This document shows positions 4,148 through 53,154 of a DNA stretch of 64,000 bases, in pieces. This DNA is from an uncultured bacterium (GTDB lineage Bacteria; Patescibacteriota; Minisyncoccia; Phycocordibacterales; UBA9973): contig CAITGV010000001.1 in NCBI GenBank assembly GCA_903892035.1, positions 419,310 to 483,309 of the forward strand, written 5' to 3'. A model generated the notes under the pieces. The model did no database searches. It was not told where the DNA came from and worked only from the letters and a program-made list of their open reading frames with translations. Numbering within the stretch: position 1 is the stretch's first letter; each line of letters begins with the position of its first letter. Made by a program: the position numbers and the translations under genes.

Positions 4148-4148
4148 T

Positions 4149-7273: not shown

Positions 7274-7278
7274 ATCTC

Positions 7279-7306
7279 GACTTTAGCAAACTAAAGTACT
7301 TTAGTC
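7279..7306. promoter_or_regulatory. Candidate operator: perfect 16-bp palindrome ACTAAAGTACTTTAGT with an extra GACTTTAG half-site
   Basis: Lies in the divergent promoter region between the YerC/TrpR-like gene (-) and the GH18 gene (+). The perfect dyad is visible in the sequence. Confidence 0.4.
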
Positions 7307-7353
7307 AAGTAAAGTAGAAAGATACCTGTGGATAAATTGTTTTTAGCTAGTGA

Positions 7354-36561: not shown

Positions 36562-37845
36562 ATGTATAGTAAAAAAATTATTGACGATATAAATAAAGAA
36601 CTTGAAAACTTGAAGGTGCAGGGGAAGTTTAAGGTGGAAAGGGAATTGGAAGGACCGCAGGGGCCGGAGGTTTTGATTGGGGGGAAGAAGGTTTTAATGT
36701 TCGGTTCAAATAATTATTTGGGACTTTCAAATCATCCTGCACTCGTTGAAGCTAGTAATGAATATCAAAAAAAATACGGCTACGGACTTTCGTCTGTACG
36801 TTTTATTTCTGGTACGCAAAATATTCACAGAGAATTGGAAAAAAAGTTGGCAGAATTTCTAGGCACAGAAGATGCGATTTTGTATTCGACAAATTTTATG
36901 TCGAACCTTGGATTTTTTGCGAGCATTGTAAATGAGCCATTTCAGAAATTGGTAGTCGGAGTACCAATTGGTACTCCGACTACCAATTATAAAGATGCAA
37001 TATATAGTGATGCACTGAACCACGCGAGTATTATCGATGCATTTAAACTTTGTAATCGCGAGCGTCTAGAAAAAAGAATTTATCCGCACAAAGATTTGAC
37101 GACGTTGCGCCAAATGCTTGAGGAAGACACTTCGACTTCGCTCAGTGCAGGCAATTCTAAAGATATTCGAAATAAAATAATAGTGACTGACGGAGTATTT
37201 TCAATGGAAGGCGATACTGCAGACCTCGCAGAGCTTGTAAAAATTGCAGAAGAATTTGGCGCAATGCTTTTTGTCGACGATGCACATGCGGTAGGAGTAT
37301 TGGGTGAAAATGGAACAGGTACGGCTGAACATTGTGGAGTTTTTGGGAAAGTAGATGTAATTTCTGGAACATTTGGAAAAGCACTTGGTGGTGCGGTCGG
37401 CGGGTATATTGCAGGTAAAAAAGAAATTGTAGAATTTTTAAGACAAAAATCTCGCACATATATGTTTTCAAATTCTGTGCCACCTGCTGTCATAGGTGCC
37501 ACACTTCGCGCACTCGAACTTTTGAAAGAAGATAATAATTTACTTATTGCAGTAAAAGATAATGCAAAATATTTTCGAGATGGTTTGGAAAAACTTGGTT
37601 TTAAAACTCTTCCAGGGAGCCATCCTATAGTTCCACTAATGATTGGTGATGCAAAGCTGACGCAAGAGATGAGTAAAAAACTTTTGGAAAATGGAATTTA
37701 CGTCGTGGGACTTTGGTTTCCTGTTGTTCCGGAAGGTCATGCACGTTTGCGTTTTCAAATTTCCGCCGCGCATACAAAAGCTCACATCGACCAAGCTCTC
37801 ACCGTCCTCGAAAAAATTGGAAAAGAAATGGGCGTCATAAATTAA
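36562..37845 (+). CDS. kbl: Glycine C-acetyltransferase (2-amino-3-ketobutyrate CoA ligase)
   Basis: PLP-dependent alpha-oxoamine synthase fold with the lysine motif SGTFGKALGG. Adjacent to tdh. Confidence 0.8.
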   Translation: MYSKKIIDDINKELENLKVQGKFKVERELEGPQGPEVLIGGKKVLMFGSNNYLGLSNHPALVEASNEYQKKYGYGLSSVRFISGTQNIHRELEKKLAEFLGTEDAILYSTNFMSNLGFFASIVNEPFQKLVVGVPIGTPTTNYKDAIYSDALNHASIIDAFKLCNRERLEKRIYPHKDLTTLRQMLEEDTSTSLSAGNSKDIRNKIIVTDGVFSMEGDTADLAELVKIAEEFGAMLFVDDAHAVGVLGENGTGTAEHCGVFGKVDVISGTFGKALGGAVGGYIAGKKEIVEFLRQKSRTYMFSNSVPPAVIGATLRALELLKEDNNLLIAVKDNAKYFRDGLEKLGFKTLPGSHPIVPLMIGDAKLTQEMSKKLLENGIYVVGLWFPVVPEGHARLRFQISAAHTKAHIDQALTVLEKIGKEMGVIN

Positions 37846-37849
37846 AAAA

Positions 37850-37890
37850 CACGGAAAACTGATGTTCGTCAGTTTTCCGTGTCTCTTTTT
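37850..37890. terminator. Bidirectional rho-independent terminator between kbl and a convergent gene
   Basis: 13-bp stem CACGGAAAACTGA/TCAGTTTTCCGTG with loop TGTTCG. A T-run follows on the + strand and an A-run on the - strand. Confidence 0.65.
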
Positions 37891-37894
37891 CTGT

Positions 37895-38323
37895 TTACTT
37901 AGTAATTAGATTGCCTGTTGTAGATAATCTAAAACCTGACGCATCATTTGACGCCCTGATACTTACTTGTGCCACATTTTCCGGTAAAGTACCTTTTTTA
38001 AGCCAAAAAAGATATTCGCCGAGTTTGTAAATTTCATAATCAGGGTCATATGGGTCAGGTTTTTTTGAAATAAAACCTAGATCCTGATTAATAAATTTAA
38101 TGAAATCTTTTTCTACGTACATTGTTTTAGGTTTTTTATACCATCCAAATATGAATGTCATAAAACCTACAAAAATTAAGCAAATAAATAAAAATGCTAA
38201 ACCTAATTGATTAGAAATGTTTGCATTAATAATTAGTATGCCAAGAATTCCGCTGGAATAAATAATTGAACCAGTCCAATATAAAATACTGGAAAATAGT
38301 TTTTTGATTAGATAATTTTGCAT
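37895..38323 (-). CDS. Hypothetical membrane protein
   Basis: 142 aa with two or three TM helices. Confidence 0.45.
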   Translation of the reverse strand: MQNYLIKKLFSSILYWTGSIIYSSGILGILIINANISNQLGLAFLFICLIFVGFMTFIFGWYKKPKTMYVEKDFIKFINQDLGFISKKPDPYDPDYEIYKLGEYLFWLKKGTLPENVAQVSIRASNDASGFRLSTTGNLITK

Positions 38324-38438
38324 GTTGTTTAAATTAAATGTTTATTAAATTGTTTAAAGAATAAGTTCATACTATAGTACAAAAATGGGGGTAAGTAAAG
38401 AGCTTTGCATTTGAGCATAAATATCATAAGATGTTTAT

Positions 38439-41333
38439 ATGATATCTCGCATTTATGTAATCCCCACAGCAAATAAGCACGTTTCAATTATTGATTCATA
38501 TACAATAGATGCGGATTTGAGTAGTGTGGAAATTGAAAAAATTGCGCAAGCTCTGAAAAATCCAGTAATTGAAAAATATTCTGTAAATAAATTTTCTTTA
38601 GATTCAAAATGTAATTTTATTATTGAAATTGGATATTTACCTGGAGTTACAGACAATGTAGCAAAGTCCGCGATGGAAATGATTGTAGATTTACTCGGCC
38701 GACCATTTAAAGATGGCGAAGCAGTTTATACTTCAAAAGTACATTTAACAAACATTAACAATGCTTCGGAACTTTACAACCCTTTAATTGAACGAGCCAG
38801 CATTTCACCCTCCCATTTACAAAGGGAGGGCAAGGGAGAGGTGAGTTTACCCCTAACTGTTCCGAAAGTTGTATTACCTAAAAAAATACCAGTAATAGAA
38901 GTTTCTTTAAATATTTCAGATGATGAATTGGTTCGTATTGGAAAAGCTGGAATTGTGGATGAGGGTGGTGCACGTGGACCTCTTGCCCTTGATTTAATGT
39001 CAATGAAAACAATTCAAGAGCATTTCAAAAAACTTGGCAGAAATCCTACAGACATCGAACTCGAATCTTTGGCGCAAACTTGGAGTGAACATTGTAAACA
39101 TACAATTTTTGCAAATCCAATAGATGAAATAAAAGATGGTTTGTATAAGACATATATAAAAGGTGCAACAAATGAAATAAGAAAAATGAAAGGCAAGAAT
39201 GATTTTTGTGTTTCAGTTTTTTCTGATAATGCTGGTGGAATAATTTTTGATGAAAAATATTTAATTACACACAAGGTTGAAACTCATAATAGTCCTTCAG
39301 CGCTTGATCCATTTGGCGGAGCCATTACAGGTATCGTCGGAGTAAATCGCGATACGATGGGTTTCGGCCTCGGTGCAAAACCAGTGGCAAATGTTTTTGG
39401 TTTTTGTTTTGGTTATCCAGACGATGTGCGCCCACTTTATCGTGATAAAAATAAAACTCAAAAAATGCTTCCACCGAAGCGTATTGTCGATGGTGTGATA
39501 AAAGGAATTAATGCGGGCGGAAATTGCTCTGGTATTCCTACTGTATCGGGTTTTATTCGCTACGATGAACGTTTTCGTGGAAAGCCTTTAGTTTTCGCTG
39601 GAACTGTCGGTCTTATTCCAAAAAAAGTTGGAGGAAGACTTTCTCATGAAAAATCTGCTCAACCGGGAGACTATATTGTAATGGCGGGTGGGCGAGTGGG
39701 TGCCGATGGAATTCATGGTGCAACATTTTCTTCTGTGGTGATGGATACTGCATCTCCTGCAACAGCTGTGCAAATTGGCGACCCAATCACTCAGAAAAAA
39801 ATGAGCGATGCAATAGTAAAAGAAGCACGCGACATGGGATTATATTCAAGCATTACTGACAACGGTGCAGGAGGAATTTCTTGTTCTGTGGCAGAGATGG
39901 CAAAAGAATGTGGTGGGCTTGTTGTAGATATTGAAAAAGTTCCACTTAAATATCCAGGGTTAACACCATGGCAAATTTGGATTTCAGAATCCCAAGAACG
40001 CATGACACTTTCTGTGCCAAAAGATAAATGGGAAAGTTTTAAAAAATTAATGGACAAACGTGGCGTAGAAGCGACAGTGATTGGCGAATTTACAAATTCT
40101 GGAAAATGCATCGTGCGGCAAAATGGAAAAATTATTATGGACTTAGCACTTTCATTTTTGCACGATGGTTTACCAAAGCGCCCATTGTTTACAAAAAAAG
40201 TTGCTCATCTTCACAAAGAACCAAAAATGCCAAATGGAATTTCTCGAACTTCTTCACTTTTGAGTTTATTGAGTGAAGGAAATATCGCAGGATTTGAATG
40301 GGTATCGGAACAATATGATCATGAAGTTCAAGCGGGCTCAGTTATAAAACCGCTCGTTGGTCGCGGAAAAATAAATTCTGAAGCTCAAGTTTTTAGACCA
40401 TTACTTTCTTCTCAAAAAGGTGTAGTGCTTTCGACTGGTGTATATCCTTCGTATTCTGACATCAGTACTTACGCAATGGCAATGTGTGCACTAGACACTG
40501 CTGTACGAAATTCTATTGCCACAGGAGGAACACTTTCACATCTCGCAATTCTTGATAATTTCTGTTGGTGTTCTTCGTATGATGAAGAACGTCTTGGTGA
40601 ACTTGTGGCATCTGTGCGAGCTTGTTACGACGGGGCTGTATTTTACGGTACTCCTTTTATTTCTGGAAAAGACAGTATGTTCAATGATTTCAAAGGTTAT
40701 GATGAAAAAGGAAATCCTGTCGCGATTTCAATTCCGCCAACGCTTCTCATTTCAGCAATTGGAGTCGTGCCAGATATAAAAAAAGTTGTAAGTCCAGATT
40801 TTAAAATTGCTGGGGATACAATATATTTAATTGGTGAGACAAATGATGAGCTTGGAGCGTCGGAATATAATAAGATGCTCGCAAAAGGTAGTGGTGCAAT
40901 AGGCAACAATGTTCCAGTTGTTAATTTAGAAAAAAATAAAAAAACATATCTCGCACTTGAAAATGCAATAAAAAAAGAATTAATTGCTTCGTCTACAGCA
41001 CTTACATCTGGTGGACTTGCTGTCGCACTTTCAAAATCTGCTGTTGCTGGCGGACTTGGTTTTTCAGTATCTCTAAAAAATATTGTGGGTAATGCAGAAA
41101 ATGTTGATGCACAGCTTTTCTCGGAAAGCCAAGGACGTATTCTAGTAACAGTTTCAAAGAAAAATATTTCAGCTTTTGAAAAGGCAATGAAAGGCGTCGC
41201 TCTTTCAAGATTGGGAACAGTATCAAAAACAAATATTTGCATCATCAGTGACAAGCAAGGCAAAAAAGCAGTAGATACAACAGTTCAAAAACTTTCAAAT
41301 TCATATCACAGTTTTAGTAAAAAAATGACATAA
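38439..41333 (+). CDS. purL: Phosphoribosylformylglycinamidine synthase subunit PurL (FGAM synthase II), with an N-terminal PurS-like extension
   Basis: PurM-like repeats (HNSPSALDPFGGAITG, DNGAGGIS) over 964 aa. Carries one palindromic-element insertion. Confidence 0.9.
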   Translation: MISRIYVIPTANKHVSIIDSYTIDADLSSVEIEKIAQALKNPVIEKYSVNKFSLDSKCNFIIEIGYLPGVTDNVAKSAMEMIVDLLGRPFKDGEAVYTSKVHLTNINNASELYNPLIERASISPSHLQREGKGEVSLPLTVPKVVLPKKIPVIEVSLNISDDELVRIGKAGIVDEGGARGPLALDLMSMKTIQEHFKKLGRNPTDIELESLAQTWSEHCKHTIFANPIDEIKDGLYKTYIKGATNEIRKMKGKNDFCVSVFSDNAGGIIFDEKYLITHKVETHNSPSALDPFGGAITGIVGVNRDTMGFGLGAKPVANVFGFCFGYPDDVRPLYRDKNKTQKMLPPKRIVDGVIKGINAGGNCSGIPTVSGFIRYDERFRGKPLVFAGTVGLIPKKVGGRLSHEKSAQPGDYIVMAGGRVGADGIHGATFSSVVMDTASPATAVQIGDPITQKKMSDAIVKEARDMGLYSSITDNGAGGISCSVAEMAKECGGLVVDIEKVPLKYPGLTPWQIWISESQERMTLSVPKDKWESFKKLMDKRGVEATVIGEFTNSGKCIVRQNGKIIMDLALSFLHDGLPKRPLFTKKVAHLHKEPKMPNGISRTSSLLSLLSEGNIAGFEWVSEQYDHEVQAGSVIKPLVGRGKINSEAQVFRPLLSSQKGVVLSTGVYPSYSDISTYAMAMCALDTAVRNSIATGGTLSHLAILDNFCWCSSYDEERLGELVASVRACYDGAVFYGTPFISGKDSMFNDFKGYDEKGNPVAISIPPTLLISAIGVVPDIKKVVSPDFKIAGDTIYLIGETNDELGASEYNKMLAKGSGAIGNNVPVVNLEKNKKTYLALENAIKKELIASSTALTSGGLAVALSKSAVAGGLGFSVSLKNIVGNAENVDAQLFSESQGRILVTVSKKNISAFEKAMKGVALSRLGTVSKTNICIISDKQGKKAVDTTVQKLSNSYHSFSKKMT
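38805..38846 (+). repeat. In-frame intragenic palindromic element (purL copy)
   Basis: CACCCTCCC-ATTTACAAA-GGGAGGG-CAA-GGGAGAGGTGAG. The 9-nt loop variant shifts the frame; encodes PSHLQREGKGEV. Confidence 0.75.
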
Positions 41334-41353
41334 AAATATGTTATATTTAAATT

Positions 41354-41710
41354 ATGGATACAAAAATCAAAATTTTAGATAAAAAGTGGAGTATTGATGA
41401 AGTGAAAACTCTTGCTGATTTATGGTATGGTTCTATGATTAAAGGTGCAGTGGATATAGAGGGTTCGCGTGTAGCTCTCGGTGGAGATTATCATATTGAA
41501 GATTCGGAGCTTTTAACTAACACTGGTTCAACATTTGAAAATGTTTGGGGTTTTAATATTCGTTTTGAAGAAAATCCTGAAGGTATTTTGGAATTTGATT
41601 CAATGGTCAACATAAAACCAAATTTTGGTAATCTTTCTAGATCAATAAATAATAAAGAAATTATCGAAAAAGCTACAGAAGTTATTTATAAATTTATAGA
41701 TTTAAAATAA
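41354..41710 (+). CDS. Hypothetical protein (118 aa)
   Basis: ORF between purL and the Cys-rich paralogs. Its stop abuts the next start. Confidence 0.45.
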   Translation: MDTKIKILDKKWSIDEVKTLADLWYGSMIKGAVDIEGSRVALGGDYHIEDSELLTNTGSTFENVWGFNIRFEENPEGILEFDSMVNIKPNFGNLSRSINNKEIIEKATEVIYKFIDLK

Positions 41711-41711
41711 T

Positions 41712-42005
41712 ATGGAAAAGAATTCACTTTTTTACATGGCAAATTTATATCCTGAAATAGGAAGACTTTTTACTTTTTACGATTCGGGAAAATTAGAAGC
41801 CGCAGAAAACGCAAAAATTCGAGCACTTTCAATAGTGGATAAAATACTTTCTTTTCGAGATATTATTCCGGCCGGTAGAGAAGAATGGTGTGTGATAAAA
41901 AATTTTATACTAGGATACGATAAATTAGACTCATATGAAAGAGAAATTTTAGAAAAATATAGTTACCCTTTTTCACTGAAATTTATGAAAGCATACAGTT
42001 CTTGA
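41712..42005 (+). CDS. Hypothetical protein (97 aa)
   Basis: ORF whose stop overlaps the start of the Cys-rich gene. Confidence 0.45.
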   Translation: MEKNSLFYMANLYPEIGRLFTFYDSGKLEAAENAKIRALSIVDKILSFRDIIPAGREEWCVIKNFILGYDKLDSYEREILEKYSYPFSLKFMKAYSS

Positions 42006-42093
42006 TTATGGAAACCAGGATCTGCCAAAATTGCAAAAATGATTTTACTATCGAGCCAGAAGATTTTTTGTTTTACGAAAAAATAAAAGTTCC
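42005..42093 (+). repeat. Near-identical ~90-bp 5' gene segment shared by the two Cys-rich paralogs (copy 1)
   Basis: ATTATGGAAACCAG(G/A)(A/G)TCTGCCAAAATTGCAAAAATGATTTTACTATCGAGCC(A/T)GAAGATTTTTTGTTTTACGAAAAAATAAAAGTTCC also occurs at 43711..43799. Confidence 0.8.
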
Positions 42094-43711
42094 TGCACCG
42101 ACATTTTGTCCGAAGTGTCGCTTGTATCGGCGTTCGGTGTGGCGCAATGAGCATTTTTTATTTAAGAAAAAAGATGACCTTACTGGAAACTTAATATTTT
42201 CTACATATTCTCCATCATCAAAAATTAAAATTTTTGAGCATTCCTATTGGTGGAGCGATGAGTGGGACCCAAAATCTTTTAGTAAGGAATATGATTTCAA
42301 TACAAACTTCTTTGAGCAATTTTATGATTTACTTTACTCAGTACCACTTTGCGATAGATCAATAAAAAGTTGTGTAGAAAGTGACTACTCAAACAATGCA
42401 ACTAATATTAAAAATGCATACCTTTGCTTTAATGCAAAAAATAGTGAGAATGTTTGTTACGGGTTTCATTTTAGCGGAAGTCATGACTGTGTGGATTTTT
42501 ATCAAACTAAAGACTCCCGTCTTTGCTATGAAACCTTTTCAGTTGTTGATTCTGAGCGTATGTTTTGGTGTAGTAACTGCTCGCAATGTTATAATTTATG
42601 GTTTTCAGATAATTGTAGAAACTGCACAGATTGTTTTGGTTGTGTAAACTTAAGAAATAAAAAATACTGTATTTTTAATAAACAATATACAAAAGAAGAA
42701 TATGAAAATGAAGTTAAAAAACTTTACGACGGATCTTTTTCTTGTTTACAGGAAATACTAAAAAAGGTAAAAATTTTTGAAAAACAATTTCCTGTACAGT
42801 ATTATCATGGGAAACACAATGTCAATGTGACTGGTGATTATATTTTTAAATCAAACAATACTTTTGATTGTTTTGAAATCCACAATGTAGATAATGCAAA
42901 ATTTTCTCAATTTATTAGACACTCTAAAGATGTTTATGATTTTAGTTGTTGGGGTATTTCATCGGAATTAATTTATGAGTCTGTAAGTTGTGGAGAAAGT
43001 TCACAAAATCTAAAATTTTGTTATGAATGTTGGCCAACATCTCATGATTTAGAATACTGTGTTGATTGTCACTCATCTTCGTATTGTTTTGGTTGCGTGA
43101 GTTTAAAAAAGGGAAAATACTGTATTTTCAATAAACAATATTCTAAAGATGAGTACTTTGAGCTAAGGTCTAGAATAATTGAACAAATGAATAAAATGCC
43201 TTATATTTCAAAAAATAAACAGATATATAAATATGGTGAATTTTTTCCGACTGAATTGTCACCATTTAATTACGAAGAATGTTCAGCTTCTGATTATTTT
43301 CCAAGTAATGAATTAATAAAAGTGCCGACAAATTATAAAATTGAAATAACACCTCAAGAATTACCAGAAATTTCTATTCAGGCAGATGATTCAATTGTTT
43401 ATAAAGTAATTGAATGCCAAGATAAACAATCCTGCAATCATCGTTGTGTTGGAGCTTTTAAAATAACAGATATTGAATTAAATTTTTATAAGCGTTTCAG
43501 TATACCGATACCTAGAATATGTCCAAACTGTAGATTTTATAATAGAATGGAAAAGTTAAATTCAGTGTTATCTCGTATTGATAATTGTATGTGTATCAAT
43601 GATTTACATGGGCATATGGGTAAATGTGGCCAAGAGTTTAAAACTAATTACCCTAAAAATAAGTCTAGAATATTATATTGTGAAGGTTGTTATCAAAAAG
43701 AAGTTATTTAA
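42008..43711 (+). CDS. Cys-rich repeat protein with N- and C-terminal zinc-ribbon motifs (paralog A)
   Basis: N-terminal CQNCKNDFTIEPEDFLFYEKIKVPAPTFCPKCR. About 20-aa Cys-spaced repeats, twice ending in CFGCVxL(R/K)xxKYCIFNKQY(T/S)K(E/D)EY. C-terminal LNFYKRFSIPIPRICPNCR plus a CxxC/HxH cluster. Confidence 0.7.
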   Translation: METRICQNCKNDFTIEPEDFLFYEKIKVPAPTFCPKCRLYRRSVWRNEHFLFKKKDDLTGNLIFSTYSPSSKIKIFEHSYWWSDEWDPKSFSKEYDFNTNFFEQFYDLLYSVPLCDRSIKSCVESDYSNNATNIKNAYLCFNAKNSENVCYGFHFSGSHDCVDFYQTKDSRLCYETFSVVDSERMFWCSNCSQCYNLWFSDNCRNCTDCFGCVNLRNKKYCIFNKQYTKEEYENEVKKLYDGSFSCLQEILKKVKIFEKQFPVQYYHGKHNVNVTGDYIFKSNNTFDCFEIHNVDNAKFSQFIRHSKDVYDFSCWGISSELIYESVSCGESSQNLKFCYECWPTSHDLEYCVDCHSSSYCFGCVSLKKGKYCIFNKQYSKDEYFELRSRIIEQMNKMPYISKNKQIYKYGEFFPTELSPFNYEECSASDYFPSNELIKVPTNYKIEITPQELPEISIQADDSIVYKVIECQDKQSCNHRCVGAFKITDIELNFYKRFSIPIPRICPNCRFYNRMEKLNSVLSRIDNCMCINDLHGHMGKCGQEFKTNYPKNKSRILYCEGCYQKEVI

Positions 43712-43799
43712 TTATGGAAACCAGAGTCTGCCAAAATTGCAAAAATGATTTTACTATCGAGCCTGAAGATTTTTTGTTTTACGAAAAAATAAAAGTTCC
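43711..43799 (+). repeat. Near-identical ~90-bp 5' gene segment shared by the two Cys-rich paralogs (copy 2)
   Basis: See copy 1. About 3 mismatches in 89 nt, far higher identity than the rest of the genes. Confidence 0.8.
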
Positions 43800-45456
43800 A
43801 CCTCCGACTTGGTGTGCTTACTGTAGGTTTATAAGAAAAATGACTTTCGTCAATGAGAGGTCTTTGTACAAAAGACAATGTGGAAATTGTGGAACTTCCA
43901 TTATCACAATGTATAAAGATACCAATTTATTTCCAGTTTGGTGTGTGAAATGTTATTTAGCGGATTCTTGGGACCCCGTAGCCTATGGTATAGATTTGGA
44001 TTTTTCTAAAAATTTCTTTACTCAGTTTAAAGAATTGCGAGATACCGTCCCACATCGTTCACTTGATCAAAATGAGAAGAATGGTAGTGATACAGAATAT
44101 TCCAATTTTTGTTATAGCAGTAAGAATTCCTATCTTTCTTTTAATGTCACAAGTTCAGAAAATATAAAGTATAGTAAATATGTTTTAAAAAAGAATAAAA
44201 ATTGCATCGATTCTTTTATATTTGCCGACAACGATAAATGTTACGAATTAGTTCAGGCAAGCAAGAATTATAATTGCTCTTTTCTTTTAGAAAGCAGAGA
44301 GTCTATTGATTCACATTTTCTGTATGATTGTTCAAATTGTGTTAGTTGTTGCTTATCTTCAAATATCCGAAATAAAAGCTTTGTTTTTGCCAATCAACAG
44401 CTTTCGAAAGAAGATTACATGAATGCAATAAAAGGACTTGAGCTCGGGACTTATACCGGCCAAGTTCGAGCCAAGAATATTTTTAAGGAAATAGTGGAAG
44501 GCTCAATTCATAAATATGCGCATAATAAAAATGCAGTAAACGTCACGGGGGACTTTATCGAGAATTCTAAAAATATTAAATATAGTTATGGTGTTGTGGG
44601 TGGAGAAAATATGAAAAATATTTTTTTTAGCATGAATGTGGCAAAAGATTCTCATGATTTAATATTTACCGGACGAGGAGAAGAATGTTATGAACTTGCA
44701 TACGGAGGTAGGGGAATAAATAGAGTCTTTTTTTCTTTTAGTTGCGGAAGTGGTAGTAAAAATTTGTTTTATTGTGACAATTGCAAGGCTTGCATGGATT
44801 GTTTTGGGTGTGTAGGGTTGCGGAACAAACAGTATTGTATCTTTAATAAAGAGTATACAAAAGAAGAGTATTTTAAAATCACAGACAAACTAAAAAAAGT
44901 CATGACCGATATGCCGTACGTTGATAAGATCGGCAGAGTTTATGGTTTTGGAGAGTATTTTCCTACAGAAATTTCTCCATTTGCATATAATGAAACAGTA
45001 GCATTTGAAGAACTGCCATTAAGCGAAGAGGGTGTTATTAAAAATGGATTTACATGGCAGAAGGCTGAAGCGAAGTCTCACATGCCAACAATTAGCGTAG
45101 ATGATATTTTAAATAATATTGCAGATATAGATGATAGTATTTGCAATGAAATTATATCTTGTCCTAACAATGGTAGTCCAAAAACTAGTTGTTCAGGAGC
45201 TTATAAAATTTTAAAAGATGAACTTACTTTTTATAAGCAAATGCATTTACCTATACCAAGGTATTGTCCAAATTGCAGATATCACCATCGTTTGGTTTGG
45301 AAAAATCCATTTCGTTTTTATAAAAGGCAATGCATGTGTGAAAAGGAAAACCATGGGCATGAGGGATCATGTCCTAACAAGTTTGAAACCTCATATTCCC
45401 CAGAACGTCCAGAAGTGGTATATTGTGAGAAGTGTTATCAAAAAGAGGTTATATGA
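43714..45456 (+). CDS. Cys-rich repeat protein with N- and C-terminal zinc-ribbon motifs (paralog B)
   Basis: Same architecture as paralog A (ETRVCQNCKNDFTIEPEDFLFYEKIKVPPPTWCAYCR ... LTFYKQMHLPIPRYCPNCR). The first ~90 nt are nearly identical to paralog A. Confidence 0.7.
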   Translation: METRVCQNCKNDFTIEPEDFLFYEKIKVPPPTWCAYCRFIRKMTFVNERSLYKRQCGNCGTSIITMYKDTNLFPVWCVKCYLADSWDPVAYGIDLDFSKNFFTQFKELRDTVPHRSLDQNEKNGSDTEYSNFCYSSKNSYLSFNVTSSENIKYSKYVLKKNKNCIDSFIFADNDKCYELVQASKNYNCSFLLESRESIDSHFLYDCSNCVSCCLSSNIRNKSFVFANQQLSKEDYMNAIKGLELGTYTGQVRAKNIFKEIVEGSIHKYAHNKNAVNVTGDFIENSKNIKYSYGVVGGENMKNIFFSMNVAKDSHDLIFTGRGEECYELAYGGRGINRVFFSFSCGSGSKNLFYCDNCKACMDCFGCVGLRNKQYCIFNKEYTKEEYFKITDKLKKVMTDMPYVDKIGRVYGFGEYFPTEISPFAYNETVAFEELPLSEEGVIKNGFTWQKAEAKSHMPTISVDDILNNIADIDDSICNEIISCPNNGSPKTSCSGAYKILKDELTFYKQMHLPIPRYCPNCRYHHRLVWKNPFRFYKRQCMCEKENHGHEGSCPNKFETSYSPERPEVVYCEKCYQKEVI

Positions 45457-45510
45457 TTAAAATAAAGGCTGTAAAAAATGAGAACCCCGTAGTAGATTTT
45501 TGACTCGATT

Positions 45511-45777
45511 ATGTTCTATGTATATTGCCTAGAAAGTGAAAAATATGATGAACTTTATTTTGGTTATACCAATGATCTTAAACGTAGATTTAAAGAACAT
45601 AATCAGAAGTTAAATTTTTCAACAAAAAGATATGCACCATGGAAAATTATTTACTACGAAGCATGTTTAAACGAAAGTGATGCAAAAAGACGTGAGAAAT
45701 ATTTAAAAACTACGCAAGGTGGCAGAATGATAAAAATTAGATTAAAAGAATATTTTTATGAAAAAAGAAAAATTTAA
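45511..45777 (+). CDS. Stand-alone GIY-YIG nuclease-domain protein (88 aa, YhbQ/UPF0213-like)
   Basis: YVYCLESEKYDELYFGYTNDLKRRFKEHN gives GIY-YIG with the conserved Arg and Glu/His. Confidence 0.7.
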   Translation: MFYVYCLESEKYDELYFGYTNDLKRRFKEHNQKLNFSTKRYAPWKIIYYEACLNESDAKRREKYLKTTQGGRMIKIRLKEYFYEKRKI

Positions 45778-46606
45778 CAAGTCAAAAATTCACTACAGGG
45801 AGAAGCCCAAAGTAATTGTCCTTTCTGGATATGGTTTAAACTGCGAGGAGGAGACAAAATTCGCTTTTGAGCACGCAGGTGGAGTGGCGGATATTGTGCA
45901 TATAAATGATTTGATTGAAAATCCAAAACAACTTTTGAAATATAATATTTTGGCTTTTCCTGGCGGATTTTCTTATGGTGACGATATGGGAAGCGGAAAA
46001 GCTTTTGCGAGTAAGATAAAAAATCACTTAAAAAAAGAATTCGAGGAATTTTTGGCAGGAGATACTTTGGCAATAGGTATTTGTAATGGTTTTCAAATAA
46101 TGACGAGTTTGGGGATTTTACCCGGGGCTTTGGCGCACAATGAAGGTGGGCGATATATAGATAGGTGGGTGGATTTAGAAGTCCCACCCTCTTCCTTAAT
46201 AAGGAGAGGGCCGGGGAGAGGTTCTTCGCCATGGACCAAAGGCATTAAGAAAATTTCTCTTTCAATTGCGCATGGAGAAGGCAGATATATTACAACAGAA
46301 AAAGAATATAAAAATTTGTTGAAGGAAAATAGAATTGCATTTAAATACGTAGAAGGAGAGATGTGTAAATACCAAAATTTGAAAGCAAATCCAAATGGTG
46401 CAATGCATGCAACAGCGGGCGTTTTGGGTTATAATGGCAGAGTCCTCGGTATGATGCCTCACCCAGAGAGGGCGATGTTTTTCACACAGAGGCCAGATTG
46501 GGAATTGCAGAAGGAAGTATTGAAAAGAAAGGGTAAAAAAATTTCAGACGAAGGAGCTGGGATTTTATTGTTTAAAAATGCGGTTAGGTATTTTACAAAA
46601 GCATAA
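45758..46606 (+). CDS. purQ: Phosphoribosylformylglycinamidine synthase glutaminase subunit PurQ
   Basis: Class I GATase: GICNGFQIM (Cys nucleophile), HGEGRY, MMPHPER. Carries one palindromic-element insertion. The start overlaps the GIY-YIG gene by 20 nt, so the true start may be downstream or non-ATG. Confidence 0.85.
   Translation: MKKEKFNKSKIHYREKPKVIVLSGYGLNCEEETKFAFEHAGGVADIVHINDLIENPKQLLKYNILAFPGGFSYGDDMGSGKAFASKIKNHLKKEFEEFLAGDTLAIGICNGFQIMTSLGILPGALAHNEGGRYIDRWVDLEVPPSSLIRRGPGRGSSPWTKGIKKISLSIAHGEGRYITTEKEYKNLLKENRIAFKYVEGEMCKYQNLKANPNGAMHATAGVLGYNGRVLGMMPHPERAMFFTQRPDWELQKEVLKRKGKKISDEGAGILLFKNAVRYFTKA
46183..46224 (+). repeat. In-frame intragenic palindromic element (purQ copy)
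   Basis: CCCACCCTCTTCC-TTAATAA-GGAGAGGG-CC-GGGGAGAGGTTC encodes PPSSLIRRGPGRGSS, a third reading frame of the tail. Confidence 0.7.
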
Positions 46607-46758
46607 AGTATAGTTTTAGTAAAAAATTATAAATTATTATTTTTTACAGTCACATAATTTTCTGGTGAAAATTTGTTTAGTCTCGGCCCGTCGGCCTGCG
46701 AAACCTGTAAAAAACAACAATTCATAATTTTTTACCAACTGCTTACGATTTTATACAT

Positions 46759-48171
46759 ATGGAAGAACTTAAAGAAAAATGTGGAATATTTGGAATTTAC
46801 GGAAAAAGTGGTGCACAGGTTGCGCGCACGGCTTTTTACGGACTTTTTGCACTTCAACATCGCGGTCAAGAAGGCTCGGGTATTTGCGTTTCAGATGGTG
46901 AGAAACTTCATACACACAAAGGCACAGGCCTTGTATCACAAATTTATACAGAAGAAAGCATCGCAGGACTTAGCGGGCATATTGCAATTGGGCACAATCG
47001 TTATTCGACTTCACGTGGAGGGACAAATTCAAATTTAAATCACGTTCAACCTTTTATTTCAGAAGATGGAAATTTAGCTTTGGCACACAATGGAAATTTG
47101 CCATCTGTCGTCGCTCTGCAAAATTTTTTGAAAGGAAAAAATGTAAATACAGAAGGAGCAAATGATTCAAAATTAATGCATTTGGCAATCGAATATTATT
47201 TAAAAAATGGTTTTTCACTTTCAGATGCAGTTGAAAAAAGTTTTCCTCTTTTTACTGGAGCTTTTTCTGTTTTAGTAATGACAAAAGATACAGTCATCGC
47301 AGTGCGAGACAGCTTTGGTATGCGACCATTTTCGTATGGAAAAATAGGGGACGATACTTTTGTTTTTGCATCAGAGACTTGTGCTCTTGAAACGGTAGGA
47401 GTGACCGAACATATGGACGTAAACCCAGGAGAGATAATAATTGTTGAAAATGGAAATATGACAAAAAAACAAATTGTACAACCAACTCCGAAATTTGATA
47501 TTTTTGAATTGGTTTATTTTGCTCGACCAGATTCTGAAATTTTAAATGAGTCAGTTTACGAAGTTCGTTCAAATTTTGGTGCAGAACTTGCAAAAGAGGT
47601 AAATATTTCGGCAGACATCGTAGTGCCAGTTCCAGAGACTGCAATTCCTTGCGCAATACGATTTTCTCGCGAAACAGGAATTCCTCTTGAAATGGCTCTT
47701 ACAAAAAATCGATACATTCACCGCACGTTTATTCAACCCGATCAGCGTACACGCGAACTTGGAGTGAGATTGAAGCTCACAGCTCTTCGAGAATTAATAC
47801 AAGGCAAACGCGTCGTAGTGATAGATGACTCAATAGTGCGAGGAACTACTTCAAAAGAATTGGTAAAATTAATTTTTAACGCCGGTGCAAAAGAAGTTCA
47901 TTTTCTTGTTGCTTCTCCTCCAGTACGCTTCCCAGATTTTTATGGTATCGATACACCAAAACAAGAAGACCTTATTGCTGCACAAATGAAAGTGGAAGAT
48001 ATTGCAAAATATCTTGGTGCAACATCGCTACATTATCTTTCTGTCGATGGTATGGTGCGAGCTACAGGTGTTTCGCGAGATGTACTCTCACTTTCAGCTT
48101 TTACAGGCGAGTACCCAATTTCTCTTCTCGAGCGTGCTAGTGAAATTAATTATGATATTCCAAAAGAGTAA
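46759..48171 (+). CDS. purF: Amidophosphoribosyltransferase
   Basis: N-terminal CGIFGIYG (Ntn Cys), PRTase motif VVVIDDSIVRGTTS. Confidence 0.9.
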   Translation: MEELKEKCGIFGIYGKSGAQVARTAFYGLFALQHRGQEGSGICVSDGEKLHTHKGTGLVSQIYTEESIAGLSGHIAIGHNRYSTSRGGTNSNLNHVQPFISEDGNLALAHNGNLPSVVALQNFLKGKNVNTEGANDSKLMHLAIEYYLKNGFSLSDAVEKSFPLFTGAFSVLVMTKDTVIAVRDSFGMRPFSYGKIGDDTFVFASETCALETVGVTEHMDVNPGEIIIVENGNMTKKQIVQPTPKFDIFELVYFARPDSEILNESVYEVRSNFGAELAKEVNISADIVVPVPETAIPCAIRFSRETGIPLEMALTKNRYIHRTFIQPDQRTRELGVRLKLTALRELIQGKRVVVIDDSIVRGTTSKELVKLIFNAGAKEVHFLVASPPVRFPDFYGIDTPKQEDLIAAQMKVEDIAKYLGATSLHYLSVDGMVRATGVSRDVLSLSAFTGEYPISLLERASEINYDIPKE

Positions 48172-48172
48172 A

Positions 48173-48769
48173 ATGAGATTAGCAATTTTAATTTCAAATG
48201 CAGGTACGGGTACAAATTTGCAAGCAATTATAGATGCCATAGAGAGCGGAAAATTAAATGCTTCGATTTGTGCTGTTGTTTCTGATAAAACGGAAAGCCC
48301 TGGACTCGAAAGAGCAAAGAAGCACAACTTGCCGATAGAGATATGCGCCAAAAAAGAAGATTTGAAGTCCCTTTTAGAAAAATTAAATCCTGATTATATT
48401 TGCCTTGCAGGTTGGAAACAAATAATTTTAGACGAAGTAATTTTGGCTTTTCCGGATAAGATTTTGAATCTACATCCCGGACTTATTCCAAATACTTTAG
48501 ATACTGCCGTCCAAAATCCAGATGGTAGTTATGCTCTTTGGAATGAAGGAATGCTTACAGACAAAGCGATACAAAATTTCTTGGACAAAAAATCCACATA
48601 CGCCGGCTCTTCAGTTCATTTTTTAACTCTGCATTTTGATTTTGGTCCAGTCCTCGGTCACACATTTGAAAAAATTGAATCTGACGATACTGTCGAAACT
48701 CTCTACTCACGATTGAAAGTAAAAGAAAATGTACTCTACGTGAGTGTTTTGCAAAAATTAGCTAATTAA
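48173..48769 (+). CDS. purN: Phosphoribosylglycinamide formyltransferase
   Basis: MRLAILISNAGTGTNLQAIIDA..., HPGLIP, and a formyl-transferase fold. The ORF track's longer version (48002) overlaps purF and is an in-frame extension. Confidence 0.8.
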   Translation: MRLAILISNAGTGTNLQAIIDAIESGKLNASICAVVSDKTESPGLERAKKHNLPIEICAKKEDLKSLLEKLNPDYICLAGWKQIILDEVILAFPDKILNLHPGLIPNTLDTAVQNPDGSYALWNEGMLTDKAIQNFLDKKSTYAGSSVHFLTLHFDFGPVLGHTFEKIESDDTVETLYSRLKVKENVLYVSVLQKLAN

Positions 48770-48770
48770 T

Positions 48771-48926
48771 ATGAATGATAAAAAACAAAAAATTTTAGAT
48801 CTTAAAAAAGAAATGGATGCAAAACTACTAGTACTCCGCCTGAAAAGGAAAGATATTATTCTTAAATTTAAAAAAAAGCTTGAAGAGGTAAAAATAAATC
48901 AAATCAGAAATAAAATATCTAAATAG
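48771..48926 (+). CDS. Possible small coiled-coil protein (51 aa)
   Basis: ATG-initiated ORF MNDKKQKILDLKKEMDAKLLVLRLKRKD... fills the purN-to-giant-gene gap. Below the ORF-track cutoff; weak. Confidence 0.25.
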   Translation: MNDKKQKILDLKKEMDAKLLVLRLKRKDIILKFKKKLEEVKINQIRNKISK

Positions 48927-48933
48927 TAAATAT

Positions 48934-51900
48934 ATGGCATCAAGAGAAGAAAAAAAGAAAATTGAGAATAAAGAAACAAAAAAAGTTGTTGCTAGTAATA
49001 AGGAGGGGAAGGAAGTATCTCAAGAAGAATTTTTAAATATTGCGAATGCAGAGAAAAGTAAATTTGAAGAAGAGACTAAAAATGCTTTACAAAATCTCAA
49101 CTCAGTTGACCTAGATGAACATACTTTTAACGAGATAAAGAATGAAAATAAAATTGAAGAAGCGTTGGGTGAAAACTTAAAAGAGGCCAATGCGGTAATT
49201 GAGAACGCAAAGAAGAGCCTAGAGGGCGCTGAATTTAACAGAGATAAGTGCCTCTATGATTTGAAGGCCAAAATTGAAAATGCCAATAGTCTCGAGGAAA
49301 TTGTGAGTGCAGTGACGATCGTACTCGAAAGTCAAAAAGACAGAGAGGACTTAAAGATGTTATTTAATAATTTTAAGTTTAAGGCATCTGAATTGACGAG
49401 CGATGGCAAGGAGAGTCTTGTTAAAGACTATTTCGGTGACATAGTCAAAACAATTACTGAATCACTGAGCGATCCTCGAAACGTAGAACAAGTAAAGAAT
49501 ACAGACTTAGTGGACATAAAAAAACAATCCATAGAAGCACTGAGTGATATTGTTCCACCTACTTTACAGGGACAAGAAAGCCCGGAGTATCTTAAAATGC
49601 TAGAGAAAATTCAGTCTAAGATTGTTGTTCCAGAATACAATTTAAGCGAATTTGTGGATTTTTTAAACCAGTATAATGAAGTGTCAAAAGGCAGGGAGGG
49701 CACGTTTGATAAATTTATCTTTAAAGATTTTCCAAAGAAAAAAGATGACTTTTTCCATGTAAAAAATGAAATTAATTATTTATTGCAAGACCCGCTTGCG
49801 CTAGAAAAAATTGACTTTATTGATAAAAGTAGCCTAAATAAAACTCTCAATCTTTTTGACGGAGATGAATTTTATAGAACTGAATATGGTGGACCGGAGA
49901 AGGCAGAGTTTCTAGAAGACAGCAACATTCTCAAGATGCCCGATTATAAAAAAGGTGTAAATATTTTTAATACTGAATACGTTCAAACAGAAAGGGCGAA
50001 CAAATTACACGGACTGTCGTTAGGGTCACTGAAACTTGCCAAAAACAACGAGTATTTTGACATTAAAACTAAGTATTCATCTGGTGCTCCAACGATAAAT
50101 CTAATCACAGAGGAAGAACTAAAGAAAATTCACGATTTTGATAGTAATCTAAAAGAATTAGATCTATATCAAATGGAATATTTCAAAGAAAATGTTGAAA
50201 ACCTACCGCAAGACATCAAAGATTTTTACCAGAAAGTTTATAACGAGCAGAATTATTCAGGTAATTTTAGCGCAGTCGCAAATAAATCTTTTTTTGAACT
50301 GGCAAAAAGTCCTGAAAACCTGAATAAAATTAAGAAATGCTTTGAGTCCAGATTGATTAGCACTATATACGATAATAATTATATCGAAAGAGTTGCGGAG
50401 TTAGATGAAAAAATCATTGATTTGATGATAGAAACTGGAGAGGGCTTGAATGCAAACATAGAATTGTTGGAAAAAGTTGCCGGCTTAAACGATCCTGACA
50501 AGGAGAAGTACAAGGAAATTGTTGCGGGGTACAGTCTTTTATCAAATTACGATAAACTTGAAACAACAGAATATGTACAGCGTATAAAGGAAATACCTGC
50601 TGAAGAAATGGACTTTTTTCTGAAATGGCAGAATACTCAGGGTAATAAGTGCTATTTTGGAATCAAAAAACTTACAGGGCCGTTGGATGACGCACTGTAT
50701 AGGAAGGAAGATTTCTCTAAACTAGTAGAGTTCCATAATAGTAGCCCAGACGCGGACTCCTTGATTTTTGATTTTTTTGCCAAGAATGATCCATACGTTT
50801 CTGATATAGTAAGAAATATTGAAACATATGGAAAAAATCCAAAAAAGTTTTTTACAGATAACCCAAAGGATGTTATTAAAAATTTTGATGAGATTCAAAA
50901 GCTTTTGGCGAGTAGGGGCGAGTCTTTAAATCAAGAAGAACTTAACTCAATATTCAATTATACTTTGAAGAGTAGTCCTCAGATGTTTCTTGAAAAAATC
51001 AGCTTCCCACTCTCACCAGAACAGCAGAAAGTTATTGATATTTTCACGAAAATTTCAAACTCGCCATCAAGTGAAATGAAAAATATGGCGCTCGAGCTCT
51101 CACTGCAGATAGTGGAGGGTGGGGATCTTTCAACCATCGATGAACGATATGAAAAGATTGATAGCATTTTTGTGCGAAACAATATCCCGTTTGTGGGAAA
51201 GCAGGCAAAGATTTGTGAAGCGCTCCACCCTCAGATAGTTACACAAAATAATTCTAGCCCAGAACTGCAATCTCTACATAGCAACAATGCTAGGCGACTT
51301 TTGATTTTCAAAGATTTGATGCTCACAAACTTTAACAGTTTGAACTCAAACTTGGAACAATATCTTTTGGTTTTCAAAAGTGGTCAGGAGGTTTTGGATA
51401 AATATGAAAGTGGTGAGCAGTTGAGCGGAGACGAAGAAGAAAAACTGAAGTATTTCTTTAAAAAGATTAACGCTCTTTCCGAAAATACCAAAAAGACTGA
51501 CAAGTTCAACAAGTTTGATTTGGAAGATTTAAGTTTGACTGAAAACTTGCAAGCGCTGAAATCAAATTTTGGTGTTGGAGAAAATCAGACAATAATCGGC
51601 AAATTTGAAGATACTTTTTTGAAAAGAATTGGTATAAGTAATTTCTCTGAAGCCCTAAAACGTTATGATGATTTACGTGAAGCAGTAAGCAACCGTAATA
51701 AGCAACTAGCGGAGAGTGGGCAGATTAATTTAGGTGAAAATGATTTAGCTAAGGGTATTTCTATTGATTATTTTGATAAAAATCTTGATCGAGGTATTTA
51801 TGCACCTGAGTTTATTGGGGCAGAAACCATTGAAGCAAAAGGTAAATCAAAAGGCAGTGATTCTACGCCATGGGATACGGATTTAATTATGGTCGGAAAT

Positions 51901-53154
51901 AGGAATACTTCAGAAATTATAGAAAAATCTACAGCTTCAGGGTATGGCGAAGCAATAATAATCATCAGAGATAGAGGCCAATTTAATCGTACGGAAAAAG
52001 GACAACCCATAGAAAAAGGTCAAGATAAATTGGAGTTATTTAAGACTCGTGCTTTGGGCGAGGACCATTATGGTATCAGGACTGGTTTTGGTTCGACCGA
52101 GATTGATGCGTTGCTGGCCAAGGATAATGTAATACAAAATAGCAAACAGCTAGATTCGCTGAAGTTCTCAATAGCGCAAAAGGGCTTCTATATACCTATC
52201 TGCGATAAAACAGGCAAGGTTATTTTTACTGCCGATGAATATGAAGAATACAAGAAAATATTTGCTGGTGTTGATAAATATCATGGTGAGGAAATCAGCT
52301 TACGGGAAGACTGGAAAAATTCTAAATTCAGCGAAGACATTAGCAAGTTTTCTCAAACTAACGAAAATCTTGATAATATTAACAAGATTAAGGATGATAT
52401 TTATTCTGATATTGAAAGTGACCTGAAAACTTTTGGAATTGAGCTTCATAAAGGACGTTACGACGATAGCGTTGTGGGAGCAAAGATAATCGATACAGGC
52501 TCTACTGGTCGTGGTGCAGCCCTCGACGAAGGATATGATCTTGACTTTGTTATTAAGGTCGACGATCGGGATGCAGATAAGATTAGTCAAATGGCTGAAA
52601 ATTTGAAAAAGAAGTATCCATATGATCAAGATTATGAAAGAGATGGCATGAGAACGTATAGGTTTAAGAGTTTTGAAAAAGATGGAAACAAAATTGACTT
52701 GGATATTAGTTTTGTCAAAAAATCAGACAGTGAAGAACTTGATGCAAATGAAGCCGTCGCGCAGAAGTACGACTCTATCAAAAAATCTTCAGGAGAAGAT
52801 AAGTTACTTGATGTTCTAACAAATGTCAGATTTGCAAAAAAGGAGTTGAAGGAAGCAGGTTGCTATAAGAAAGGAATGACTGGTAATGGAGAACAACAAG
52901 GCGGAATGGGTGGCATTGGCGTTGAAAACTGGATATTGCAAAATGGTGGAGATGCGGTGGATGCATTTAGAGATTTCAATAAAAATGCTTACCAAGATGG
53001 TGAACTCGTATCATTTAATGACTTCAAGAAAAAATACAAGATCTTCAGCGCTGGTAGCAATATACGAGGCGGAGTCAAGGCAGAAAACTTCGTTTATAAT
53101 ATGGATGAAACAGGCTATAATAAAATGGCTGAACTTTCGAAGAAGTTTATTTAG
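48934..53154 (+). CDS. Giant (1406 aa) protein: long Lys/Glu/Asn-rich helical N-terminal region plus a C-terminal polymerase-beta-superfamily nucleotidyltransferase domain
   Basis: C-terminal motif IIDTGSTGRGAALDEGYDLDFVIKVDD (hG[GS]x9-13DhD) plus a downstream IDLDISF acidic strand. No signal peptide. Located inside the pur cluster. Confidence 0.75.
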   Translation: MASREEKKKIENKETKKVVASNKEGKEVSQEEFLNIANAEKSKFEEETKNALQNLNSVDLDEHTFNEIKNENKIEEALGENLKEANAVIENAKKSLEGAEFNRDKCLYDLKAKIENANSLEEIVSAVTIVLESQKDREDLKMLFNNFKFKASELTSDGKESLVKDYFGDIVKTITESLSDPRNVEQVKNTDLVDIKKQSIEALSDIVPPTLQGQESPEYLKMLEKIQSKIVVPEYNLSEFVDFLNQYNEVSKGREGTFDKFIFKDFPKKKDDFFHVKNEINYLLQDPLALEKIDFIDKSSLNKTLNLFDGDEFYRTEYGGPEKAEFLEDSNILKMPDYKKGVNIFNTEYVQTERANKLHGLSLGSLKLAKNNEYFDIKTKYSSGAPTINLITEEELKKIHDFDSNLKELDLYQMEYFKENVENLPQDIKDFYQKVYNEQNYSGNFSAVANKSFFELAKSPENLNKIKKCFESRLISTIYDNNYIERVAELDEKIIDLMIETGEGLNANIELLEKVAGLNDPDKEKYKEIVAGYSLLSNYDKLETTEYVQRIKEIPAEEMDFFLKWQNTQGNKCYFGIKKLTGPLDDALYRKEDFSKLVEFHNSSPDADSLIFDFFAKNDPYVSDIVRNIETYGKNPKKFFTDNPKDVIKNFDEIQKLLASRGESLNQEELNSIFNYTLKSSPQMFLEKISFPLSPEQQKVIDIFTKISNSPSSEMKNMALELSLQIVEGGDLSTIDERYEKIDSIFVRNNIPFVGKQAKICEALHPQIVTQNNSSPELQSLHSNNARRLLIFKDLMLTNFNSLNSNLEQYLLVFKSGQEVLDKYESGEQLSGDEEEKLKYFFKKINALSENTKKTDKFNKFDLEDLSLTENLQALKSNFGVGENQTIIGKFEDTFLKRIGISNFSEALKRYDDLREAVSNRNKQLAESGQINLGENDLAKGISIDYFDKNLDRGIYAPEFIGAETIEAKGKSKGSDSTPWDTDLIMVGNRNTSEIIEKSTASGYGEAIIIIRDRGQFNRTEKGQPIEKGQDKLELFKTRALGEDHYGIRTGFGSTEIDALLAKDNVIQNSKQLDSLKFSIAQKGFYIPICDKTGKVIFTADEYEEYKKIFAGVDKYHGEEISLREDWKNSKFSEDISKFSQTNENLDNINKIKDDIYSDIESDLKTFGIELHKGRYDDSVVGAKIIDTGSTGRGAALDEGYDLDFVIKVDDRDADKISQMAENLKKKYPYDQDYERDGMRTYRFKSFEKDGNKIDLDISFVKKSDSEELDANEAVAQKYDSIKKSSGEDKLLDVLTNVRFAKKELKEAGCYKKGMTGNGEQQGGMGGIGVENWILQNGGDAVDAFRDFNKNAYQDGELVSFNDFKKKYKIFSAGSNIRGGVKAENFVYNMDETGYNKMAELSKKFI

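Follow-up and report, generated by a model that had tools for sequence, protein, structure and literature searches.

The locus between purL and purQ

The window analyzed here is a stretch of 64 kb (64,000 nucleotides [nt]) from an uncultured bacterium of the Patescibacteria (contig CAITGV010000001.1; positions are counted from the first letter of the window). Between the purine biosynthesis genes purL and purQ, it encodes, in this order, a DUF5674 protein of 118 amino acids (aa), a protein of 97 aa (orf97), two long Cys-rich paralogs (A and B), and a stand-alone GIY-YIG protein of 88 aa. The first four of these genes make up a four-gene block, DUF5674-orf97-paralogA-paralogB, which is the local version of a module that recurs across the sampled genomes of Patescibacteria. 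Its two long paralogs belong to a very large protein family without a match in curated libraries, the sequences of which are already public as "hypothetical protein." A first-pass annotation, made from the letters of the sequence, had taken the region for a single five-gene insertion; instead, it is composed of the four-gene block and an apparently separate cassette that carries the GIY-YIG gene.

All five open reading frames (ORFs) are found on the plus strand where the first-pass annotation had placed them, and the ORF list continues on the same strand with purQ, purF, and purN. The identities of purL, purQ, purF, and purN are borne out by Pfam. The left flank, purL (38439-41333, +), encodes the large subunit of formylglycinamidine ribonucleotide (FGAM) synthase (AIRS_C, 8.2e-46; AIRS, 1.7e-18; FGAR-AT_linker, 1.4e-16); on the right follow purQ (45758-46606, +; GATase_5, 2.6e-67), whose Pfam match begins at residue 16, and purF (46759-48171, +). 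The DUF5674 gene (41354-41710, +) matches PF18924 with 67.1 bits compared to a threshold of 27 and covers profile positions 2 to 109 of 109. Its structure model is confident (predicted local distance difference test score [pLDDT] of 84), and a structure search with this model found no informative structural neighbor. orf97 (41712-42005, +) has no Pfam match. Paralog A (567 aa; 42008-43711, +) and paralog B (580 aa; 43714-45456, +) start with ATG, as in the public gene calls for the identical contig, and these starts are backed by homologs; TTG codons at 42002 (A) and 43687 (B) are possible alternatives. An exact copy of paralog A (P0001) is present in public assemblies. The GIY-YIG gene (45511-45777, +) shares 20 nt with the annotated purQ ORF.

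With the ATG starts, the spacers from purL through the GIY-YIG gene measure 20, 1, 2, 2, and 54 nt. Thus, the packing is very tight, as expected from the operon-like array described before, but real overlaps of stops and starts hinge on the start codon chosen. A promoter/terminator scan, in which the number of sites was not above that in shuffled sequence, revealed no terminator-like site on the plus strand inside the four-gene block, and Rfam families were not found in 37500-49000. Given the gaps of 1 to 2 nt and the lack of such a terminator-like site, cotranscription with the pur genes is the simplest reading of the sequence, and the block is probably transcribed together with them.

A Cys-rich protein family and its gene neighborhood

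Paralogs A and B are 38% identical over their full length. Alignments of the two with 43 homologs (45 members) and, separately, of 159 copies from related loci revealed a fixed architecture: an N-terminal ribbon, two internally duplicated modules, a conserved YKYGEFFPxExSPFAYNE segment, and two predicted C-terminal zinc sites, in proteins of ~570 to 600 aa with a median of 35 Cys per protein. Across the 45 diverse members, 51 columns are invariant and the length is constant. The N-terminal ribbon reads as a treble-clef zinc ribbon, the putative ligands of which (C6/C9/C34/C37) are 100% conserved. The C-terminal zinc sites, encoded in A by 43415-43690 (+), consist of C470/C480/C505/C508 and C527/C540/C558/C561; their Cys columns are conserved at 92 to 100% in the 159 copies, and the terminal site is joined by C529/H534/H536 in 69% of the members. 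The N-terminal ribbon, C-terminal ribbon, and Cys/His cluster that the first reading had seen as shared are indeed present in both paralogs.

Each duplicated module closes with CFGCVxLRxKxYCIFNxxYxKEEY, followed by a helix. Recurring CFGCVxLRNKxYCIFNKxYTKEEY units had been claimed for each paralog; A has two of them, but B has one intact unit, its first being degenerate (CCLSSNIRNKSFVFANQQLSKEDY). At the DNA level, this direct repeat family (D1) has three copies, unit 1 of A (the CFGCVNLRNKKYCIFNKQYTKEEY region; 42588-42703, +), unit 2 of A (43041-43156, +; 68% identical to unit 1 of A), and unit 2 of B (44756-44871, +; 72% identical to unit 1 of A), and the duplication is also visible as a second BLASTP segment. 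AlphaFold modeled the Cys-ladder modules as beta-solenoid-like coils, and these solenoid regions of the model are only moderately confident (pLDDT of 55 to 74). Residues ~57 to 90 of paralog B (43882-43983) contain an extra CxxC...CxxC motif (RQCGNCG...WCVKCY) that is degenerate in paralog A; its first Cys (column 56) is found in about 58% of the family members.

The conserved Cys4 and Cys/His sets fit multi-zinc proteins, in line with the metal-binding repeat protein proposed before. A metallothionein-like metal store is unlikely, since the length is fixed and invariance extends to many residues other than Cys. A significant match to the paralogs was absent in Pfam, NCBIfam, PADLOC, and PHROGs, and the PDB offered neither a sequence-profile nor a fold match. 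Hence, the earlier impression that this architecture is not a known family was sustained by profile and structure searches, which returned no curated family or solved structure.

The paralogs, viewed before as a protein pair, are not isolated but are members of a very large, multicopy family of Patescibacteria. A word-indexed search gave 7,872 significant matches among 8,000 scored candidates; none of the 120 matches listed carries a functional name, and the organism, where given, is of a Patescibacteria lineage. An exhaustive profile search yielded 5,223 clusters at 50% identity, of which 2,188 had E values of ≤1e-30, and a scan of species-representative genomes confirmed at least 574 stretches. 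Judged by record title, the 79 loci listed are all from Patescibacteria; they include Nomura-, Staskawicz-, Lipton-, Jorgensen-, Sung-, and Magasanikbacteria, Paceibacteria, and Minisyncoccia, and many further ones are labeled "uncultured Candidatus Saccharibacteria" or plain "bacterium." In sum, the family is found in ultrasmall Patescibacteria, mostly in groups assigned to Parcubacteria/Paceibacteria. The searchable literature (DUF5674, Cys-rich families of Parcubacteria, zf_Tbcl domain) offered no account of either the family or the gene cluster.

The 79 listed loci contain 198 family ORFs, which form same-strand tandem arrays of up to seven copies (locus L014; L numbers designate the related loci) that are diverged to 35 to 45% identity. 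At least 11 copies are encoded in one metagenome-assembled genome (JAKAKW01, loci L038 and L041). Shortened or split copies of 118 to 319 aa lie inside the arrays of L005, L006, L008, and L038. These truncated copies suggest birth-and-death turnover with pseudogenization, although assembly errors are also possible.

The two small ORFs upstream of the paralogs, originally described as small unknowns, turned out to be a highly conserved pair that recurs beside the family. orf97 has 190 homologs, of which those listed are 75 to 86% identical to it, and DUF5674 and orf97 are 73 to 86% identical across genomes. Where the upstream sequence is long enough, DUF5674 nearly always lies directly upstream of orf97; the two are an essentially invariant adjacent pair. 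In about 20 of the 41 orf97-centered loci, a family copy is located immediately up- or downstream of the pair. The commonest flank of the arrays, seen in 31 of the 79 listed loci, is a gene for a soluble VirD4/TraG-like P-loop ATPase (for example, VirD4/TraG/HerA-like ATPases at 5810-7912 in L016 and 11767-13281 in L054). These ATPases carry the Pfam signatures TrwB_AAD_bind, T4SS-DNA_transf, TraG-D_C, and DUF87 and come in two forms, a long one (~670 to 715 aa), which combines a zf_Tbcl_2 finger with a long low-complexity tail, and a short one (~490 to 515 aa). An N-terminal membrane segment was not evident in the flanking ATPase sequences read.

Is the family, then, linked to protein folding? 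The commonest setting is dnaK, long ATPase, [ABC transporter], [copies], DUF5674, orf97, [copies], short ATPase, dnaJ, and the full dnaK-dnaJ island is present in L068, L096, L098, L101, L103, and L108. In L117, the module lies between grpE and dnaK. Arrays between grpE and dnaK or between dnaK and dnaJ (L016, L020, L030, L038, L054, L060, L066, L068, L098, L108, and L117) and the many conserved Cys sets would suit zinc- or redox-switch chaperones or holdases, similar to Hsp33 or the zinc center of DnaJ, that are coexpressed with grpE-dnaK-dnaJ, with the ATPases as unfoldases. However, sequence and fold searches returned nothing similar to Hsp33 or DnaJ, a chaperone would not usually be encoded by ten or more paralogs per genome, the dnaK neighborhood may be inherited gene order, and the blocks of the window and of L082 are located elsewhere. 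A chaperone function is therefore an unlikely reading. In L100 and L104, the dnaK-dnaJ island is without family copies.

Adjacency to VirD4/TraG-like genes in the 31 loci could also mean that the paralogs are effectors, recognized by VirD4-like coupling proteins and delivered to a host by a type IV secretion system. Patescibacteria do encode such systems (PMC12102498), and multicopy, diversified families are typical of effectors. The same paper counts 5,713 VirD4-like coupling-protein homologs across 2,918 Patescibacteria genomes and places only 148 of these near virB4; a location that is mostly far from virB4 does not favor secretion, and neither does the lack of an evident N-terminal membrane segment in the neighboring ATPase sequences read. 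Furthermore, tightly folded multi-zinc proteins would be poor secretion substrates, and conservation in the family core is strong. With these points taken together, an effector role is very unlikely. The array-flanking ATPases probably belong to the thousands of orphan coupling-protein homologs described in PMC12102498.

The pur location of the block is not conserved, as orthologs of paralog A at 65 to 67% identity are single genes in an unrelated context (L002 and L003). With regard to the earlier question whether the block always resides in the pur operon, the answer is no: elsewhere, the module is found in the dnaK-dnaJ island, between grpE and dnaK, or, in L082, inside the S10 ribosomal-protein operon, with the L2 gene on one side and the S19 gene on the other. 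Since the operon that hosts the module differs among the other genomes, an insertion into the pur operon is plausible by analogy. The GC content of the block is 0.29 to 0.33 compared to 0.36 to 0.41 in the other window genes measured, with the deficit in codon positions 1 and 2; its GC3 (GC content at codon position 3) of 0.17 to 0.27 is inside the range of 0.19 to 0.38 of the other window genes, and therefore, a recent foreign origin was rejected on grounds of composition. In a repeat search, neither direct repeats nor target-site duplications were detected at the borders of the four-gene block. The block may have come to the pur cluster by rearrangement, as a relocated sub-block that is native in composition and without the ATPases.

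Two side observations concern these operons. In L082, the genes intervening in the S10 operon (957-8081) are two small ORFs (one of them UPF0150), P5CR_dimer, AA_kinase+PUA, Aldedh, the family copy, DUF5674, orf97, and VIT1; P5CR_dimer, AA_kinase+PUA, and Aldedh are three proline-synthesis-like genes, and the VIT1 transporter gene is on the opposite strand. This is an unusual interruption, in one genome, of a normally invariant operon. In the window, at least purL, purQ, purF, purN, and purD are encoded in 38439-58446 (Pfam), and an ORF of 1,406 aa without a Pfam match (48934-53154) between purN and purD is a second interruption of the pur cluster. Its C-terminal part contains GSTGRGAALDEGYDLDFVI, which, judged by eye, reads like a Pol-beta-type nucleotidyltransferase motif. 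To our knowledge, purine biosynthesis is lacking in most members of the Patescibacteria.

The 5′ ends of the paralogs and the putative GIY-YIG cassette

The near identity of the first ~90 nt of the two paralog genes, noticed in the first-pass annotation, was confirmed: the tract 42003-42093 (+) of A, which holds the N-terminal zinc-ribbon codons, and the tract 43709-43799 (+) of B differ by 3 mismatches in 91 nt. Of the residues identical in A and B, 25 of 28 within the first 31 aa are encoded by the same codon in both genes, compared to 97 of 187 elsewhere (Fisher P = 1.5e-4; binomial P = 3e-5), with the reservation that the segment was picked after seeing the data. Among 155 same-locus pairs, the codon test gave a P value of <0.01 for 16, in 10 loci including the window; in L006, for example, 28 of 31 codons are the same in the 5′ segment compared to 101 of 220 elsewhere.

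The identity tract spans the initiation region, starting 5 nt upstream of the ATG, and the paralog genes are 2 nt apart, so that their translation may be coupled; it is imaginable that the 5′ identity reflects a constraint at the nucleotide level, for example, a structured RNA, a regulatory target, or coupled translation. However, codon identity in the 5′ segment at identical residues between genomes is 0.49, which equals the background, no unusual folding was detected in the two tracts (z = 0.30 for A and z = −0.32 for B), and Rfam gave no match. An RNA element was rejected on the basis of the background-level codon identity and the missing folding signal, and a nucleotide-level constraint of any kind is highly improbable. 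Unequal crossing-over that carried along upstream sequence is unlikely as well, because the identity begins just 5 nt before the ATG.

Recurrent short-tract gene conversion between tandem copies would best explain the codon tests, the between-genome codon identity, and the absence of an RNA signal, and the homogenization of 5′ ends suggested earlier agrees with this. Conversion would be seeded in the most conserved segment, and the N-terminal ribbon would be kept nearly uniform within each genome while the cores diverge. The pattern resembles concerted evolution by short-tract gene conversion in that identity is limited to ~90 nt, including synonymous sites, with the remainder saturated, and in that it recurs independently in the 10 loci including the window. 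It differs in that one gene end only, the zinc-ribbon codons, is affected and that no recombination hot-spot motif was identified. If conversion is the cause, the end-restricted, recurrent tracts would be a clean natural case of concerted evolution that holds one domain uniform amid divergence.

The 88-aa gene downstream of paralog B was correctly recognized as a stand-alone GIY-YIG gene. Its product belongs to the GIY-YIG superfamily (PF01541; 1.3e-16, 61.1 bits compared to a threshold of 22.6), with FYVY and YFGYT readable in the sequence. It consists of the catalytic domain only, falls below the TIGR01453 intron-endonuclease model (17.1 bits compared to 56.05), and is the only one of the five proteins with a PHROG match, a weak one to a homing-endonuclease PHROG (2.4e-4). 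Rfam detected no group I intron in 37500-49000.

Closer inspection of the gene borders revealed an inverted repeat. Its left arm (45485-45505, +) is complementary in 18 of 21 nt to its right arm (45780-45800, +), which lies within the first 15 codons of the annotated purQ ORF, and the stem closes the predicted RNA fold of 45470-45815 (346 nt; z = −4.0). Homologs in L012 (~13240-13525) and L019 (11840-12130, −) are bracketed by perfect repeats of other sequence, with lengths of 15 and 20 nt, respectively. The bracketing-repeat scores are 12, 15, and 20 compared to a 99th percentile of 9 in 400 control small ORFs; two other GIY-YIG homologs miss such a repeat. In each of the three bracketed loci, the next gene downstream (purQ, a gene read as that of phosphoglycerate kinase, and that of a VirD4-like ATPase) has its start codon in or at the right arm. 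Removal of 45485-45800 in silico fuses the ATG at 45478 in frame to purQ, giving MRKKPKVIVLSGYG. In L012, removal of the cassette and a 2-nt duplication restores ATG AAA ACT TTG (MKTLKD) at the start of the gene read as that of phosphoglycerate kinase. These five examples are suggestive of a small cassette that inserts at gene starts and is separate from the four-gene block; in the window, its target would have been the very beginning of purQ, the start codon of which would now come from the 3′ end of the cassette.

Small stand-alone GIY-YIG proteins are known, as exemplified by YhbQ of Escherichia coli. With the free-standing GIY-YIG homing endonucleases, the window gene has in common the catalytic domain, an intergenic or gene-start site, and signs of insertion. 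In contrast to these enzymes, the 88-aa protein is without a DNA-binding domain and fails TIGR01453, and its gene is spanned by an inverted repeat, a description of which for the GIY-YIG class was not found in the literature searched.

The GIY-YIG gene bears on another explanation, according to which the locus is a mobile or defense-type island, the paralogs being diversifying immunity or conflict proteins and the nuclease a part of the system. The module changes its position between genomes (pur, S10, and dnaK operons), diverged family copies, including truncated ones, are arrayed in tandem, and both in the window and in L012, a family copy is directly followed by a GIY-YIG gene. However, only 5 of about 120 loci have a GIY-YIG gene close to the family, and the gene has inverted repeats of its own; it appears to be independent of the block. 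None of the five proteins matched a PADLOC family (E values up to 1), PHROGs gave nothing significant for the paralogs, relatives of the family were not found in viral contigs (IMG/VR), and GC3 is ordinary for the window. Fifty-one invariant columns and a constant length among 45 members are unlike arms-race proteins, and DUF5674 and orf97 are strongly conserved across genomes. Defense, which the first-pass annotation had mentioned, is thus unsupported, and an island of this type is quite unlikely. Rather, the sequence evidence favors a conserved, vertically maintained, and presumably cytoplasmic system over defense or mobile cargo.

Possible function and relation to known systems

In our model, the family members are taken as cytoplasmic, since no signal peptide was seen in them by inspection. 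They would act as multi-zinc adaptors, the constant zinc-ribbon ends of which dock on one shared partner. This partner would be either the VirD4-like ATPases, a related treble-clef finger being present in their long form, or DUF5674/orf97. The variable solenoid cores would give each paralog its own client or ligand. This adaptor mechanism, with either partner, is doubtful at present. A wider proposal is that the family, DUF5674, orf97, and the paired soluble VirD4-like ATPases form an undescribed, Patescibacteria-specific machine, which could feed protein or nucleic-acid clients to a cytoplasmic translocase of the FtsK/VirD4 type; it is offered with equally low confidence. If such a machine exists, it would account for thousands of orphan coupling-protein homologs that are encoded far from type IV secretion genes.

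As the overall explanation, we tentatively prefer, with a confidence that falls a little short of even, a recurrent family module that was rearranged into the pur cluster, underwent 5′ conversion, was joined by a separate GIY-YIG cassette, and, much more speculatively, encodes zinc adaptors working with ATPases. Several points weigh against it, beyond the moderate confidence of the solenoid model and the choice of the codon-test segment mentioned above. About a third of the DUF5674-orf97 loci are without a nearby family copy or ATPase. tblastn with ATPase representatives found no VirD4-like ATPase in the 64-kb window, and therefore, the block can exist apart from the ATPases, at least locally. 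The dnaK-dnaJ island could in part be inherited gene order within one taxonomic order. An empty purL-purQ site was not seen, the related loci fetched carrying neither purL nor purQ. Finally, the adaptor model has as its basis the neighborhood, a shared zinc-finger class, and the combination of conserved ends with a variable core.

The nearest known relatives of the zinc-ribbon ends are zf_Tbcl and zf_Tbcl_2 (PF13451 and PF23477), a class with the spacing CxxC-x17-CxxC. The family ribbon, CQNCK..F.IE.EDF.FYEK..VP.PT.C..CR, fits this pattern, and so do the second ribbon and the C-terminal ...P.RPEIVYCE.CY motif. PF13451 is matched by 10 of the 45 aligned members (best E value, 1.1e-6) and PF23477 by 3 of 45 (best, 2e-4); the window paralogs themselves have no zf_Tbcl match at E values up to 1. 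The ribbon motif and its four Cys ligands are 100% conserved in the family. By this pattern, the ribbons appear to belong to the treble-clef zf_Tbcl class. However, the known domains are modules of ~35 aa without an established function and correspond to <20% of the family proteins, the central ~400 residues of which have no counterpart. Among Cys-ladder and other beta-solenoids, the nearest are the Tenebrio antifreeze protein (1ezg), curli CsgA (8c50), and the heads of trimeric autotransporters.

Genomes of Patescibacteria are typically around 1 Mb, and with at least 11 copies in one metagenome-assembled genome, some of these bacteria give an estimated 1 to 2% of their genome to the Cys-rich family. 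It is kept beside two very strongly conserved small genes and ATPases of a currently unexplained role. An abundant and conserved family without a known relative is a concrete handle on the biology of ultrasmall symbiotic bacteria.

With respect to the ATPases, the nearest known system is the set of orphan VirD4-like homologs. The array-flanking ATPases fit coupling-protein homologs encoded away from virB4, as described in PMC12102498. They differ in that a membrane anchor was not evident in the sequences read, and none of them is encoded in the 64-kb window. Furthermore, the orphan homologs are not linked to a Cys-rich family, DUF5674, or orf97 in the passages of that paper which were read. 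By their recurrent place beside the family, the orphan VirD4-like ATPases gain testable candidate partners.

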